From a bacterium (lineage in GTDB: Bacteria > Patescibacteriota > Minisyncoccia > Phycocordibacterales > UBA1550): a stretch of DNA of 64,000 nucleotides. Shown here in pieces: positions 8,291 to 15,541 of the stretch. The stretch covers positions 4,130 through 68,129 of the forward strand of contig JAUSES010000029.1 of assembly GCA_030649835.1 (NCBI GenBank). The letters run 5' to 3'. The notes under the pieces were generated by a model. It was not told where the DNA came from. It saw nothing but the letters and a program-made list of their open reading frames with translations, and did not search any database. Every line of letters starts with the position of its first letter. Position 1 is the stretch's first letter. Made by a program: the position numbers and the translations under genes.

Positions 8291-8389
8291 TTGTAGCCCA
8301 CACTCTTTCCTTATATACTACCTGTATGTGTGAGAAGAGGGGTCGTTGGGACTACAAAATTAATAGTTTTAAATAAACAAATAAAATAT

Positions 8390-9229
8390 ATGAGAAAAAA
8401 CATTATCGCCCTTGCTTTACTTATCGCCTTCGGCGGAGTTGGGATGGCGAGCGCAGAGACAGACGGAACAGGAAGCGCTGATGCATCCGTAACGACAAAC
8501 ACGAGCACGAGTGAGTCATCAACGGGAACCCTCGGGCTACCTCCGACAGTGCCAAAACTTCGCGCAGAAACACGTGAGCAAATGGAAATGAAGGCAAGAG
8601 TGCTTCGCGCGTCTACCACAGAGATGCGCAAGGACATGCGCGCCTCAACCACTGCAGCCATCAAAGTTATGCATGGAGAAATGAAGGGCGACATGAAAGA
8701 CGCACGACACGAAATGGAAGCGCGCGCAAAAGCACTTCGCGCATCAAGCACCATGGCGCGTGAAAACATGAAAGATGAACAGCACAAAAAGCGTCTTGAA
8801 CAAGCACGCAAGAAACTGGAGATGATTGACAAGCGTTTGGAAGCGGCAATTGAGCGCGTTCAAAAACTTTCTGACCGTGTTTCTGAAAGACTCAGCCAGC
8901 AACCAGCAGGCTCAACGACCGTTTCCCTATCTCATCTCGCAGAAGCTAAAGTAAAGCTCGATGAAGCGCGCACCAAATCTGCGTCCCTCAAGCTTTCTAT
9001 TGAAACAGCCCTCGCAAGCTCAGGCTCTGGAACCGCATCAAGCACCACACCAAAAGATGTACTCAAGGATGTGCGCGACGCAGTGAAAGATACTACCGAC
9101 TTGATAAAAGAAGCACACCGCCATGTTGTTCTTGCAATTTCTTCACTAAAGCCAGGACTTAAAAAAGATCGTCCTGCAACAACGACAGCACAAGTGGGCG
9201 CTACTACTAGTGCTACGGTAACTCAGTAA
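8390..9229 (+). CDS. secreted coiled-coil protein (signal peptide; K/E/R-rich helical repeats)
   Basis: The ORF-track ORF is 8330..9229. The likely true start is MRKNIIALALLIAFGGVGMASA at 8390, giving a signal peptide. Confidence 0.6.
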   Translation: MRKNIIALALLIAFGGVGMASAETDGTGSADASVTTNTSTSESSTGTLGLPPTVPKLRAETREQMEMKARVLRASTTEMRKDMRASTTAAIKVMHGEMKGDMKDARHEMEARAKALRASSTMARENMKDEQHKKRLEQARKKLEMIDKRLEAAIERVQKLSDRVSERLSQQPAGSTTVSLSHLAEAKVKLDEARTKSASLKLSIETALASSGSGTASSTTPKDVLKDVRDAVKDTTDLIKEAHRHVVLAISSLKPGLKKDRPATTTAQVGATTSATVTQ

Positions 9230-10917: not shown

Positions 10918-10942
10918 GACCGGCATAATGCCGGTTTTTTCT
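10918..10942 (+). terminator. rho-independent terminator after tig
   Basis: gaccggcataatgccggtc followed by a T-tract. Confidence 0.55.
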
Positions 10943-11328
10943 TAGCTACAAATGATTTGATACTCCTCTTTAATAATCGCTTTCCACTCTGCTGTTTCGT
11001 TTTTGCTACTTAAATCAGTTTTTGTGTATACCAATAAAACTGAGACGGATTGTTTCTCCTTGTTTAACGCAACAATACATCTATTGCCCGAACTCTTTGC
11101 GGATTCTTTTGTTCCTGCTATCCTAAATTTCGTTTTTATAATTTGTACACCTTCTACATCACTAATAGTTTCGGCACGATCAGTCAGAAGTAGATTATCA
11201 ACACGCTCAAGCTCAGCAACAATCGCAAGTCGGGTAATGTCCCATTTCCCTTGGTACTTCTTTTGAAAACTTTTGATGAAATGCCGTTCGGCGAAATCTT
11301 CAATCATTACTGAAAAATTTCCTTGCAT
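10942..11328 (-). CDS. 128-aa protein encoded 12 nt downstream of the HTH-Panacea gene; candidate toxin partner (family not recognised)
   Basis: Operon position. The C-terminal beta-rich segment (NRCIVALNKEKQSVSVLLVYTKTD) is loosely RelE/YoeB-like. Confidence 0.35.
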   Translation of the reverse strand: MQGNFSVMIEDFAERHFIKSFQKKYQGKWDITRLAIVAELERVDNLLLTDRAETISDVEGVQIIKTKFRIAGTKESAKSSGNRCIVALNKEKQSVSVLLVYTKTDLSSKNETAEWKAIIKEEYQIICS

Positions 11329-11340
11329 AATTTTGAACGA

Positions 11341-12042
11341 CTAATACACCACCTCAGGGTCTTCCTGTGTAATGAGTTCGTATGGGATAAGTTCATTGTC
11401 GCGACACAAAAAATATGGAAGTTGATTGTGGGTAAAGTTTACAATTTCATTCGTGTTTTTATCCTTCCACTTTGTTGCAATTTTTTTCATAAGCGACATC
11501 TCCTCTACAGAAAGTGTTCGTATCTTTTCATTTTTATTGCTATCTGATTCGCTCACGAGAAGCATGCCTTTGCCATCAGTATTTTTGCGGTCTATCACAA
11601 TTTTGCCAGACTCCTCAAGCTCGTCGAGTGCGCGAAAAAAGGTATCTGGTACGGGACCATATGAAATCTTCCGATACTGCATGCCACTCATACTTTCAAG
11701 ATGTTCATAGAACCACGCGAAATCTGCAAGATAAAGCAACTTCGCAAGTTTTGTTTTAGTTACTTTGCCGTCATCTTTTTGCGTTAGACTCATGCGTAGA
11801 AAAGAAAGGATCATGTGTTTGTACTTTTCAATGTCGGGGATGGTGCCAGAGAGTAGAGTATCCACTCCGATACTAAAAAAACTTGCGAGCTTCTTTACTT
11901 CATCCACATCAAGCGGTTGTTTCCCTGCCTCTATCGCTGTATATGTTGAGCGAGAAACACCTATCGCTGTGGCGACCTGTTCCTGCGAAAGCCCTCGCCC
12001 TACCCGAAGACTCTTTATGAATTGTGCATATTTATTAGTCAT
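11341..12042 (-). CDS. XRE-family HTH protein fused to a Panacea (DUF4065, SocA/PanA-like antitoxin) domain
   Basis: N-terminus LSQEQVATAIGVSRSTYTAIEAGKQ is an HTH_3 motif. KLAKLLYLADFAWF…YRKISYGPVPDTFF matches the Panacea signature KLxKLLYxAxxW…YGPV. The likely start is MTNKYAQ at 12042; the track ORF extends to a TTG at 12078. Confidence 0.6.
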   Translation of the reverse strand: MTNKYAQFIKSLRVGRGLSQEQVATAIGVSRSTYTAIEAGKQPLDVDEVKKLASFFSIGVDTLLSGTIPDIEKYKHMILSFLRMSLTQKDDGKVTKTKLAKLLYLADFAWFYEHLESMSGMQYRKISYGPVPDTFFRALDELEESGKIVIDRKNTDGKGMLLVSESDSNKNEKIRTLSVEEMSLMKKIATKWKDKNTNEIVNFTHNQLPYFLCRDNELIPYELITQEDPEVVY

Positions 12043-12173
12043 ACACAGATTATACACTGTTTTATGCACAGAAAGCAAGCAATTTTGGTCAAGAATTCAC
12101 ACAAAGGGTGGTATAATGAATGTGCTGGCGTAGTCGAGCCAGCACCTAAATTACTAGAAAATTCGTAGAATTT

Positions 12174-12377
12174 ATGAAGTATTACGTAAACAAAAACCAG
12201 CAAACAAACGGCGACCATGAAGTGCACACAGCAAACTGTTCGCGATTACCGAACCTCGAGAATCGGTTATACCTTGGAGACTTTCTTTATTGCTCACAAG
12301 CAGTAAATGAAGCAAAGAGGTATTATCGGCAATCTAATGGCTGTTATTACTGTTCAAACCCTTGCCATACACAGTAG
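12174..12377 (+). CDS. small Cys/His-rich conserved hypothetical protein (possible Zn-binding)
   Basis: 67 aa with C22, C40, C57, C60, C64 and H65. An extended -10 (TGgTATAAT, 12109..12117) and a 5'-UTR hairpin (12122..12145) lie upstream. Confidence 0.45.
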   Translation: MKYYVNKNQQTNGDHEVHTANCSRLPNLENRLYLGDFLYCSQAVNEAKRYYRQSNGCYYCSNPCHTQ

Positions 12378-12518: not shown

Positions 12519-12779
12519 TTATATAATTAGAATTATTTGAATTAAAAAACTAAAAGCAATAAGTAGTAGCCCAAAATAACTAAGTTTTTTATATCTTTCG
12601 TACTTTCTTTTTTCAGTTTCGTCAGTTTGTTCTAAAAGAAGACAACTGTCCCCCTCAGGATTAACCCGAGGAGGTAGCCCGAAGAAAAACAATATCATTG
12701 TTCCAACCAACCCAAAAAATGCGCTCCACAATTCAAGATTCATTAAATAGCCAATGAGAATTTCTAAATAATTCTCCAT
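12519..12779 (-). CDS. small two-TM membrane protein, immediately downstream of the restriction-modification gene
   Basis: Two hydrophobic helices. Start lies 3 nt after the stop of the upstream gene. Confidence 0.4.
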   Translation of the reverse strand: MENYLEILIGYLMNLELWSAFFGLVGTMILFFFGLPPRVNPEGDSCLLLEQTDETEKRKYERYKKLSYFGLLLIAFSFLIQIILII

Positions 12780-12781
12780 AT

Positions 12782-15487
12782 CTATTTACTCGTGTACTTC
12801 TTATATAGCTCAAATAAAAATTCAATGCGGGATTCTTTGGTGGGGAATTTTTTGTTGTAGCAGGCGTCGACGGCGCGGTCGAGGTCGGTGTGGGCTTTGA
12901 CGAGCTCGGGTGGCATGGTGTTGGGATCGTATAGATCAGCAAGTGAGCTATGTGGAAATTGCGCACGAGCATCAAGCACACCTTGTGCGGACTCCTCTAC
13001 TTTTTTCTTTTGTTCATCTAAAATATTTTCTGGCCAGGGGAAGTTGTTATAAACAATGTTGATTGAATAATTGTAGTCACTTTTTAATCTTCCACACACT
13101 CTATTAACCCATGTCATGTGCATCAAGGAACTAAGTATTCCAAAAATATATAATAAATTATCTGAAACAACTGATGCTCCTTTGTTGTTGATAACGACAT
13201 TTTTGTGCATAAATCCAATGGGGATTACATCCCTGCTTTCAGAAGAAATGAGTGGGAAAAATAAAAAATTTTCCTCTGGTTGTCTCCTCTCTGCAAAAAT
13301 GGCAGGTGTACTTGCTAATTTTTGAGTTGCTTCACGCGAACTTTCTAAGCGGTGATTTTTAGTCTTCTCAATTCTTTCTAAAACCATCGGCATCATTCTT
13401 AATTTTGAAGGCTCAACACCAACAAGCCACAAGCAATATCGTTTTCTGCTGTTAATTAGTTCCTCAGATCCAATATACTCTCTAAAATACTCTGCACTTT
13501 GTGGTTCAGAATTAACGAACTCGAGGTACTCTTCTTTTGTAAAAATAAGATTACCTCCGTCATTCGGCATACTTCCAAAATTCATTTCTGGGACATTACA
13601 AATGGGCTTTCTGCGACTTTCCAAAAAAATATCATTTCCTTCTGAAAGATACGAGTTGATCTTTTTAACTTCTTTTTCCTTTGGCTCGCTTTTTATTGTC
13701 TCGTATTCATAGAGATATTTTTTAGAAGTCTCCACTGTCGCAAAACCCACAATGACACAATACACAGCTGCAACTCCAGGCGCATCATTATTCCATTTGA
13801 ATGTCTGATGTGCGAAGTGAATTACAATGCCATATTTTTCTTTTAATCTCTTCCACAAAATTCCCACTTGCTCACCTTGGCAGATTGAGTTAGTAGAAAC
13901 GAACGCGGTTTTGATATTGGTACCAACCATATATCGTGATGCCTTTTCATACCATGCAGTTACAAAATCCAAATTGCCTGCACCTTTTGCATTATCAAAA
14001 ATACTCAAGAACACCTCTTTTTGCCCTTTGCTCATTATTCGAGCGCCCACAAAAGGCGGATTACCGAGGATGTACGAGAGTTTGTGCTTGGGTACAACTT
14101 CTTCCCATTTTCTAGTAAGCGCGTTATCATTTACAATTGTCGCTGGTTCACGAAGCGGTAAGCGCAGGTATGGAATGCCAAATTTTGCCGAGAGCTCGTT
14201 GTTCATCTGATGATCTACAAGATACATTGCCGTGCGCGCAATCAGCGCTGGCGACTCCTCTATTTCTATTCCATAAAACTGATTAACATTGAGGAGCGAG
14301 AGGTCTTCGGTGCCAAACATTCTCATCTGTCCTGTTTTATTTTTTATATCAAGGATTTCGAGCTCAAGCCTGCGAAGTTCGCGATACGTAACCACAAGGA
14401 AGTTGCCGCAGCCGCACGCTGGGTCGAGGAATGTGAGCTTTGCAAGCTTTTGATGAAATGCATCAAGTTTTTTTGGATCATACTTCGCTTGATCAAATTC
14501 AACATACAACTCATCAAGAAAAAGTGGTTGAATGACTTTTAAAATATTTTTTTCAGAAGTATAGTGGGCTCCGAGCTGACGTCGACTATCTTCGTTCATT
14601 ACCCCTTGGAACAGGGAGCCGAAAATAGATGCTGATATTTCTGACCAACCAAAACTGCAACACTTCACGAGCTTTAGGCGCGCTCCTGCATCCAAAGATA
14701 CTGGAGCGATACGTTCCGCAAAAACTCCGCCGTTGATGTGTGGGAATGCGTTTAACTGCTCATCGAGATTTGTTTGTCGCTTTTCTCGTGGAGTGTTGAG
14801 GACTTCAAAAATTTGGAGCAAGTGAATGCCTAAATCACTACCGTCTATATTTGTGCGGTCTTCTATATAGGTGCGAAACTGCCCTTGCTGAAATATTCCA
14901 GTGTCCTCGGCAAAGAGGCAGAACAATATACGTGCGAGAAAAACATCAAGGTCATGCCCGCTGTATCCCGTCTTTGCAATCTCGTTGTGAAAATCCGCCA
15001 TCAATTTTGCCGCCTTGATGCTTGCCTCTTCTTCTTTTTCATAATGACGAACAGTATACCCAGAAATGAACCCAAAAAGTTCTATGTTTTTATGTAAATC
15101 TTTAAGCAAAAATTCTTCGTGCTTATTTTCTTCCAAGTCATATACTCGTATTTTTTCAAAATCGGAAACAACAATATAGCGTGGTAGCTCTGCGTTTTTT
15201 AATCCCGGGATATAGTCCTTTGCTTGAGCATATGCTTTGTCGAGGTCTTTGCCTCGCGACTTGTGTTCCGCAAGCATCACCCCTTTCCAGAGAACGTCGA
15301 TAAACCCCTGCGCGCCATCCTGCTTTTTAACATTATATTCAAATGCTGCGACCCTGCGACGAGGAACGCCAAAAACCTCAAAAAATCCGTCCCAAAAACT
15401 TTTTGCTTCTGCGTCTTCGTTGCATTCTCGCTCCCATTCGTGGGCAAAAACGAGGGCGCGGTTTCGTATTTCGTTGAGACTTATCAT
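12782..15487 (-). CDS. Type IIG/IIL single-polypeptide restriction-modification enzyme, MmeI family (N-terminal PD-ExK nuclease, N6-adenine methyltransferase, TRD)
   Basis: FIDVLWKGVMLAEHKSRGKDL matches the MmeI nuclease D-x9-E-x-K motif. LDPACGCGNFLV is motif I. GNPPFVG is motif IV (N6-A methyltransferase). The C-terminal LADLYDP…AH.DLD..V tail is MmeI-like. Length is ~900 aa. Start ATG at 15487 with GGAGG upstream. Confidence 0.75.
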   Translation of the reverse strand: MISLNEIRNRALVFAHEWERECNEDAEAKSFWDGFFEVFGVPRRRVAAFEYNVKKQDGAQGFIDVLWKGVMLAEHKSRGKDLDKAYAQAKDYIPGLKNAELPRYIVVSDFEKIRVYDLEENKHEEFLLKDLHKNIELFGFISGYTVRHYEKEEEASIKAAKLMADFHNEIAKTGYSGHDLDVFLARILFCLFAEDTGIFQQGQFRTYIEDRTNIDGSDLGIHLLQIFEVLNTPREKRQTNLDEQLNAFPHINGGVFAERIAPVSLDAGARLKLVKCCSFGWSEISASIFGSLFQGVMNEDSRRQLGAHYTSEKNILKVIQPLFLDELYVEFDQAKYDPKKLDAFHQKLAKLTFLDPACGCGNFLVVTYRELRRLELEILDIKNKTGQMRMFGTEDLSLLNVNQFYGIEIEESPALIARTAMYLVDHQMNNELSAKFGIPYLRLPLREPATIVNDNALTRKWEEVVPKHKLSYILGNPPFVGARIMSKGQKEVFLSIFDNAKGAGNLDFVTAWYEKASRYMVGTNIKTAFVSTNSICQGEQVGILWKRLKEKYGIVIHFAHQTFKWNNDAPGVAAVYCVIVGFATVETSKKYLYEYETIKSEPKEKEVKKINSYLSEGNDIFLESRRKPICNVPEMNFGSMPNDGGNLIFTKEEYLEFVNSEPQSAEYFREYIGSEELINSRKRYCLWLVGVEPSKLRMMPMVLERIEKTKNHRLESSREATQKLASTPAIFAERRQPEENFLFFPLISSESRDVIPIGFMHKNVVINNKGASVVSDNLLYIFGILSSLMHMTWVNRVCGRLKSDYNYSINIVYNNFPWPENILDEQKKKVEESAQGVLDARAQFPHSSLADLYDPNTMPPELVKAHTDLDRAVDACYNKKFPTKESRIEFLFELYKKYTSK

Positions 15488-15541
15488 GTGTTTTACGTCC
15501 TCCAAGTATACGCCCAATTGTTTTTAATACAAAACGTGCGA

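Follow-up and report, generated by a model that had tools for sequence, protein, structure and literature searches.

Panacea antitoxins (PanA) were defined together with 88 clusters of partner toxins (PanT) (Kurata et al. 2022, PNAS, PMC8832971). In that collection, 343 PanAs carry an N-terminal helix-turn-helix (HTH) domain, the antitoxin gene more commonly comes first, and the most frequent annotated class of partner is MqsR-like (n = 90), with ParE partners also mentioned. Dataset S1 of the same study pairs Panacea with RelE/ParE-fold toxins in clusters T14, T28 (YoeB/ParE-like) and T59 (annotated as RelE/ParE family toxin). The Panacea domain either neutralizes the toxin directly or is presumed to act as a sensor while another segment of the antitoxin neutralizes (Ernits et al. 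2023, PMC10440598). A literature search for Panacea toxin–antitoxin (TA) systems in Patescibacteria found no paper on that topic. Here we describe an HTH-Panacea gene, panA, and the gene for a 128-amino-acid (aa) partner that follows it, panT, in a 64,000-nucleotide (nt) stretch of the Patescibacteriota contig JAUSES010000029.1. This whole stretch is referred to below as the window.

Two described systems bear most closely on this locus: cluster T14 and the HigB2–HigA2 pair of Vibrio cholerae. T14 comprises 16 members in antitoxin-then-toxin order, including WP_015641600.1, WP_129619247.1, WP_067091868.1 and toxins from Pedobacter and Flexibacter, and is connected to HigB-2 by an HHpred probability of 99.73%; all 16 pairs are marked untested in Dataset S1 (PMC8832971). 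The T14 members outside methanogen archaea carry HTH-PanA, and the cluster includes Patescibacteria, namely Candidatus Saccharimonas aalborgensis and a TM7 genome, where the two genes overlap (−11 nt) (PMC8832971). HigB-2 cleaves mRNA in a ribosome-dependent manner, and its active site is RelE-like. Changing R64, Y82 or K84 to alanine lowers its activity 350- to 3000-fold, and the range for alanine substitutions of R64, Y82, K84 and R51 is 170- to 3000-fold (Hadzi et al. 2017, PMC5416850).

A conserved HTH-Panacea gene pair

The open reading frame (ORF) and its translation place panA at 12042..11341 on the minus strand, with an ATG at 12042 and a TAG stop at 11343-11341, encoding 233 aa. panT (11328..10942, minus strand) lies in the same frame and on the same strand, starting exactly 12 nt past the panA stop. 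No Shine-Dalgarno sequence is evident in the 12-nt spacer between them (TCGTTCAAAATT, 11329..11340, minus strand), which implies that translation of panT is coupled to that of panA. The module is present in one copy within the window, and the G+C contents of panA (41.6%) and panT (36.7%) are both below that of the window (43.8%). A first-pass annotation of this DNA had recognized the antitoxin gene and placed a 128-aa gene 12 nt downstream of it, in agreement with these coordinates. Its length for the antitoxin, 234 aa, counted the stop codon, and its range for the pair, 10942-12078, contains both genes but extends to the furthest TTG of the open frame. We rejected this TTG (12078) as the start of panA, as it is part of the −35 hexamer, and the orthologues start at positions that align with ATG 12042.

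The combination of an XRE-type HTH with a C-terminal Panacea/DUF4065 segment, proposed by the same annotation, is borne out by profile searches. An XRE/Cro-type HTH DNA-binding domain covers aa 9-61 (11860..12018, minus strand; PF01381 (HTH_3), E 1e-14), with a score of 54.7 bits versus a Pfam cut-off of 23; matches to HTH_31 and HTH_19 also exceed their Pfam cut-offs. Among PDB sequences, the nearest relatives of this domain are the 434 repressor and the restriction-modification (RM) controller proteins C.AhdI and C.BclI. A search with PF13274 (SocA_Panacea, DUF4065), named at the outset as the check to be made, locates the Panacea domain at aa 99-207 (11422..11748, minus strand; Pfam E 5.2e-14); the match scores 53.6 bits versus a gathering cut-off of 25.7 and spans model positions 1-109 of 113. 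This region is also covered by phrog_1281 (E 5.8e-12), and the motif KLAKLLYLADFAW...ISYGPVPDTFF is found in the PanA translation. Conservation extends beyond the domain itself: across 76 orthologues, mean column conservation of the Panacea domain is 0.76, and the Panacea core differs little in this respect from the linker before it (aa 62-98) or the C-terminal tail after it (aa 208-233), with mean column identities of 0.74-0.78. The Pfam scan detected no zinc-binding domain in PanA, and the score against the SocA equivalog NF047745 (NCBIfam), 16.4 bits versus a cut-off of 190, falls short of SocA identity. A single-sequence AlphaFold2 (AF2) model of PanA had a mean predicted local distance difference test (pLDDT) score of 44.8, with confident fold confined to the HTH domain; because the model was poor elsewhere, it was left out of the fold search.

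To what extent the two genes belong together can be judged from their relatives. When each GTDB species was represented by a single genome, a scan yielded 80 loci with a homologue of the toxin, nearly all of them in Patescibacteria metagenome-assembled genomes (MAGs). A panA homologue (46-92% identity) lies directly upstream on the same strand in 78 of these 80; the other two are uninformative, since they begin within 41 nt of the toxin gene. The distance from the panA stop to the panT start ranges from −11 to +13 nt in the relatives, the −11 overlap occurring in 19 loci, and the identities of the two proteins to the window pair co-vary (Spearman 0.64, p 7e-10). The flanks, by comparison, are not conserved: reverse-strand shadow ORFs within the module excepted, no outside family appears in more than 10 of 81 loci. 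Recurrent neighbors, labeled by eye, are HsdR-like, HsdS-like, DUF262-like and Fic-like proteins, methylases and a GIY-YIG-like protein of 672 aa, a set that resembles RM and other defense-type genes. The two genes are thus a conserved, tightly coupled unit of antitoxin-then-toxin type, and their pairing goes far beyond chance. As read from the sequences, the pattern is that of a mobile chromosomal two-gene TA module.

Several loci merit separate mention. Two (L014:2375-3049 and L027:7255-7938) contain a second, distant HTH-Panacea paralogue that is ∼26% identical to PanA of the window (E 1e-19). In L014 this paralogue lies directly downstream of the toxin gene, suggesting tandem or stacked PanA modules. 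Two other loci among the 80 carry labels from outside Patescibacteria, L022 (Methanosarcinales archaeon) and L062 (Bacteroidia). These contigs measure 2.5 and 2.1 kb, and their modules are 57-79% identical to that of the window; mis-binning of Patescibacteria contigs, and not cross-phylum spread, is the probable explanation.

Predicted fold and active site of PanT

The 128-aa protein had been described from the start as lacking a recognized domain, and this description holds. Searches of Pfam, NCBIfam and PADLOC returned nothing above threshold, no RelE/ParE-superfamily model of Pfam or NCBIfam matched at E ≤ 1, and phmmer against PDB found no match. The sole weak PHROG match was phrog_5869 (E 1.2e-4), a family whose function is not known. 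The same is true of the family as a whole, for which we used a profile of 83 diverse members: 25 Pfam families are listed for these at E ≤ 0.1, each matching at most 2 members. Even so, relatives are abundant. In a database of 5.8 billion proteins, the protein has matches in at least 458 clusters at 90% identity, and the best 120 matches are 65-100% identical to it. HMMER, run exhaustively on 1.84 billion representatives, gave 183 clusters at 50% identity, and a profile search with divergent members gave 34 proteins, with a Komeilibacteria MAG as the sole organism named. All organism-named matches to the window protein come from Patescibacteria or from unclassified-bacterium metagenome assemblies. 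Judged by these homologues, the 128-aa protein is a real, conserved protein despite the absence of family models. No relatives of the toxin turned up in plasmid and phage collections searched with tblastn or among IMG/VR viral contigs, and hence there is no sign of a plasmid- or phage-borne module.

Structure prediction, also suggested by the first-pass annotation, pointed to a familiar fold, RelE/ParE, rather than to a novel kind of toxin. The AF2 model, built from a multiple sequence alignment of 37 homologues, is confident, with a pLDDT of 86 and a predicted template modeling score of 0.81. Its topology is a strand, a long helix (aa 11-40), a four-stranded antiparallel sheet and a C-terminal helix (aa 111-123), which agrees with the N-terminal strand and helices on an antiparallel β-sheet that characterize the RelE/ParE (BECR) fold. 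When the model was used as a Foldseek query, the top ∼40 hits were nearly all RelE, HigB, HigB2, YoeB or YafQ RNase toxins, and ParE appeared from rank 43 onward. A search of viral folds (BFVD) with the toxin gave no informative match.

Sequence comparison leads to the same branch of the superfamily. When the 83-member profile was run against PDB sequences, the five best matches were all V. cholerae HigB-2 (E 0.03), with the core of the profile (SaksSgnRcIv...LLvYsK) aligned to KRGGSRIIYY...LLTIYGK. An hhalign comparison of the profile with a HigB-2 homologue from a Vibrio tapetis plasmid left the register unchanged (E 3.4e-5, probability 72%). In this register, R83, Y101 and K103 of the window toxin align with R64, Y82 and K84 of HigB-2, and R69 aligns with R51. 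The catalytic Arg on β3 and the Tyr/Lys on β4 of V. cholerae HigB2 therefore have counterparts in PanT, through alignments of modest significance. Conservation of R83, Y101, K103 and K65 is 90% or higher, even in members with no more than 28-40% identity to the window toxin. R83, Y101 and K103, together with K65/R69, are thus the putative catalytic residues of PanT. From the modeled fold and the aligned residues, we regard PanT as a very divergent RelE/HigB2-type toxin, whose nearest branch within the RelE/ParE superfamily is HigB-2/RelE. It is most probably a ribosome-dependent mRNA endonuclease. In this assignment the fold comes from prediction, the residue equivalence from alignment, and the activity from what we infer on the basis of both.

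The V. cholerae HigB2–HigA2 system (RelE, PF06296) shares with the window pair a RelE-type fold with a C-terminal helix, a partner with an XRE-type HTH, and the SGxR...LLxxYxK core with Arg, Tyr and Lys at the positions of R64, Y82 and K84. The two systems differ in several respects. In higBA the toxin gene comes first, whereas here the antitoxin gene does; HigA2 lacks Panacea and neutralizes by means of an N-terminal segment that is disordered; and HigB2 is 110 aa long, compared to 128 aa for the window toxin with its long N-terminal helix. Unlike HigB2, the window toxin reaches no Pfam RelE-superfamily model. Among other solved relatives, aRelE of P. horikoshii (1wmi) and YoeB (7v6w) show only 11-20% sequence identity to the window toxin, and their antitoxins, RelB and YefM, are unrelated to Panacea. 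Catalysis by YoeB involves a Glu/His pair, and such a pair is not evident in the window toxin. The MqsR:PanA systems of Burkholderia and Herbaspirillum resemble the window pair in joining a RelE-superfamily RNase toxin to a PanA with an HTH, showing that Panacea antitoxins already partner this fold (Kurata et al. 2022; Ernits et al. 2023, PMC10440598). In those systems, however, neutralization is carried out by a zinc-binding domain and does not require Panacea, and the zinc domain was not detected in the window PanA.

Cluster T14 provides the closest parallel within the Panacea network. Both T14 and the window family have an N-terminal HTH followed by Panacea and an antitoxin-then-toxin order, with spacings of −17 to +12 nt in T14 versus −11 to +13 nt here, and the −11 overlap of the T14 Patescibacteria pairs recurs in the 19 loci noted above. 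For both, the nearest solved relative of the toxin is HigB-2, although the link is stronger for the T14 representative (99.73%, HHpred) than for the window family (E 0.03 for profile versus sequence; 72% for hhalign with one sequence). The window clade may belong to T14; the comparison, made by description only, draws on architecture, spacing, the link to HigB-2 and the Saccharibacteria among the T14 members. These similarities bear on the suggestion of the first-pass annotation that the 128-aa protein could represent a family of toxins without a previous link to Panacea. Given the RelE/HigB2-like fold and the RelE/ParE-fold partners listed in T14, T28 and T59, this suggestion fails at the level of fold and mechanism, and it may also fail at the level of family if the clade belongs to T14. 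The novelty that is left is modest, and consists of a large clade, essentially restricted to Patescibacteria among its named members, for which Pfam and NCBIfam have no model.

Promoter and candidate operator of panAT

Alignment of the window with its relatives reveals a promoter for panA at 12049..12078 (minus strand), with a −35 element TTGCTT (12078-12073), an 18-nt spacer and a −10 element TATAAT (12054-12049). The corresponding consensus among the orthologues is TTGACT-17-TATACT. In the window, the −10 element ends 6 nt before the panA ATG, and this distance is 6-9 nt in 62 of 75 loci; the panAT mRNA is therefore expected to be leaderless across the family. The panA promoter of the window escaped a generic promoter scanner, because its −35 element matches at 3 of 6 positions only; it becomes visible in the comparative alignment.

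A candidate operator overlaps this promoter. In the window, a repeat search identified a perfect 8-bp inverted repeat, TGTGCATA (12023-12030) and TATGCACA (12063-12070), which spans 12023..12070 and brackets the −10 box and the start codon. A palindrome centered on the panA start codon, with arms of 15-21 bp, is seen in 37 of 75 related loci, where it covers the −10 box and the first ∼7 codons of panA, thereby constraining those codons. Examples include L004 (TTTGCATATACTTGTTCAT|ATGAACAAGTATATGCAAA, at ∼270-310 of that locus), L038, L064 and L012. The palindromes score 10-20, compared to ∼5 for shuffled controls, and their arms vary in a compensatory fashion from one locus to another. The window and its closest relative, L001, keep the outer arms only (7-8 bp). 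Since transcription is predicted to start downstream of the left arm, the element is best read as a DNA operator for a dimeric HTH protein rather than as an RNA hairpin. Comparative sequence analysis shows both promoter and palindrome, and PanA would be the protein that binds there. The combination of leaderless promoter and start-codon palindrome is the other new aspect of this family, again a modest one.

Two further elements border the module. Just upstream of the −35 element, a conserved motif, TGTCAA-N4-TCGACA, is present in the window as a degenerate copy, GTGTGAATTCTTGACC (12087..12102, minus strand); when 69 loci are aligned on the −35 element, the upstream consensus reads TGTCAAnTnnTnnAC...TGCTTGACTTnTTTACA. 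This motif is a possible second operator site. At the other end, a terminator scan and inspection of the sequence located a GC-rich hairpin, ACCGGCATTATGCCGGT (10919..10935), with T-runs (U-tracts) on both strands. It looks like a bidirectional terminator common to panT, on the minus strand, and the convergent trigger-factor gene tig, on the plus strand.

Proposed mode of action and genomic setting

We consider it likely that the module is a chromosomal type II TA system of the PanAT class, in which a RelE-like mRNase toxin is neutralized directly by an HTH-Panacea antitoxin. PanA would bind the toxin and neutralize it, as suggested by the validated PanA:PanT complexes of Kurata et al. (2022). 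A PanA dimer would also bind, through its XRE HTH, the inverted repeat around the −10 box and start codon, and thereby repress its own leaderless, translationally coupled two-gene mRNA. Loss of the antitoxin, or a cue sensed by the Panacea domain, would set the toxin free to enter the ribosomal A site and cleave mRNA under translation, leading to translation arrest. Of the predicted catalytic residues, R83 would sit on one strand, Y101 and K103 where the last strand ends, and K65/R69 on the preceding strand. The module appears to move among Patescibacteria genomes, often landing amid RM or other defense genes. These frequent neighbors make a role in abortive-infection phage defense, or in stabilization of genomic islands, plausible.

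A number of considerations weigh against this interpretation. The toxin structure is a prediction from 37 fairly similar sequences, and proteins of the RelE/ParE fold can be gyrase poisons rather than RNases. The sequence link to HigB-2 is weak when taken alone (E 0.03 and 72%), and none of the 83 family members is matched by a RelE/ParE-superfamily Pfam model at E ≤ 0.1. The start-codon palindrome is reduced in the window to its 8-bp arms. Toxicity, neutralization, RNA cleavage and DNA binding are all inferred. Furthermore, several PanT candidates are non-toxic in E. coli, and several PanAs fail to rescue cells from their partner (Kurata et al. 2022, PMC8832971).

Could the 128-aa protein be a gyrase poison of the ParE type, with the HTH-Panacea protein as its antitoxin? 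A C-terminal helix (aa 111-123) is a feature that the protein shares with ParE, and ParE domains occur among PanA partners (Kurata et al. 2022, PMC8832971). On the other hand, the sequence-level links go to HigB-2 only, and the near-invariant R83, Y101 and K103 occupy the HigB-2 catalytic positions. To our knowledge, ParE toxins have no such conserved RNase site, and we judge a ParE-type activity improbable. The name of PF13274, taken from SocA, and a weak match to the NCBIfam SocA_antitoxin model (E 0.0054) bring to mind instead a type VI arrangement like SocAB, in which the Panacea protein would be an adaptor that hands the toxin to ClpXP rather than an inhibitor that binds it. This seems highly unlikely, considering that the SocA equivalog score is far below its cut-off, as given above, and that the HTH domain and operator layout are typical of type II autoregulation. 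The partner of SocA, SocB, is a replication inhibitor and, as far as we know, is unrelated to the RelE fold. In pull-downs, moreover, the PanAs that were assayed remained stably bound to their toxins, as expected of type II systems (Kurata et al. 2022, PMC8832971).

A different kind of alternative is that the pair does not arrest growth at all, the RelE-fold protein having been tamed or re-purposed as a co-repressor or ribosome-associated regulator, such that the two genes form a purely transcriptional regulatory unit. The unusual conservation of the protein, 65-89% identity over many Patescibacteria lineages, could mean a housekeeping-like role, and eight of the PanT candidates assayed in E. 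coli showed no toxicity (Kurata et al. 2022, PMC8832971). Yet all equivalents of the HigB-2 catalytic residues are kept family-wide, the patchy distribution and varying neighborhoods are typical of mobile TA modules, and the antitoxin-first, tightly coupled, auto-regulated layout is that of a canonical type II system. There is, in our view, a small chance that the regulatory explanation is correct, comparable to that of a ParE-type toxin. A more specific version of the type II TA interpretation is that the toxins form a sequence-orphan RelE-like clade restricted to Patescibacteria and distinct from T14, which has co-evolved with HTH-Panacea into a phage-sensing abortive-infection module, with Panacea as the sensor, a leaderless mRNA and a start-codon operator palindrome. 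We hold this to be doubtful, though less so than the alternatives above; if true, it would make the module a widespread immune element of ultra-small episymbiotic bacteria.

Under the favored reading, as a type II PanAT system with a RelE-like toxin, the locus adds a well-populated branch to the Panacea TA network. A seemingly domain-less partner would be recognized as a RelE/HigB2-type toxin missed by current Pfam and NCBIfam models, and the family could seed a new profile, putting an end to the hypothetical annotation of such genes. The conserved leaderless promoter and palindrome would offer a clean system in which to study autoregulation by PanA. The module would also mark variable defense/RM islands in genomes of the candidate phyla radiation. 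The current picture of Panacea is unchanged, because RelE-fold pairings have already been catalogued.

In the window, the module is flanked on one side by tig and on the other by a gene for an MmeI-type enzyme. The latter (12782-15517, minus strand) is complete and encodes an MmeI-family type IIG RM enzyme of 911 aa that matches 5 of 5 MmeI Pfam domains (E 1e-23 to 5e-86). Its position, ∼700 nt upstream of panAT, places the module in a defense-type neighborhood. Between the two, an 86-aa ORF (12519-12779, minus strand) has a hydrophobic look by eye and no Pfam match. This ORF stops 3 nt upstream of where the MmeI-type gene begins, and the two may be co-transcribed.

Divergent from panA on the plus strand, an extended −10 element, TGGTATAAT (12109-12117), is followed by a strong hairpin, GTGCTGGC-N8-GCCAGCAC (12122-12145), and then by a Cys/His-rich ORF of 67 aa without a Pfam match (12174-12377). 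This element as a whole (12109-12377, plus strand) is not conserved beside the module in relatives. Elsewhere in the window, a gene at 8330-9229 (plus strand) encodes a 299-aa protein without a Pfam match, in which a hydrophobic segment at the N terminus is followed by a long low-complexity body that is charged and rich in Ala, Lys, Glu and Thr.

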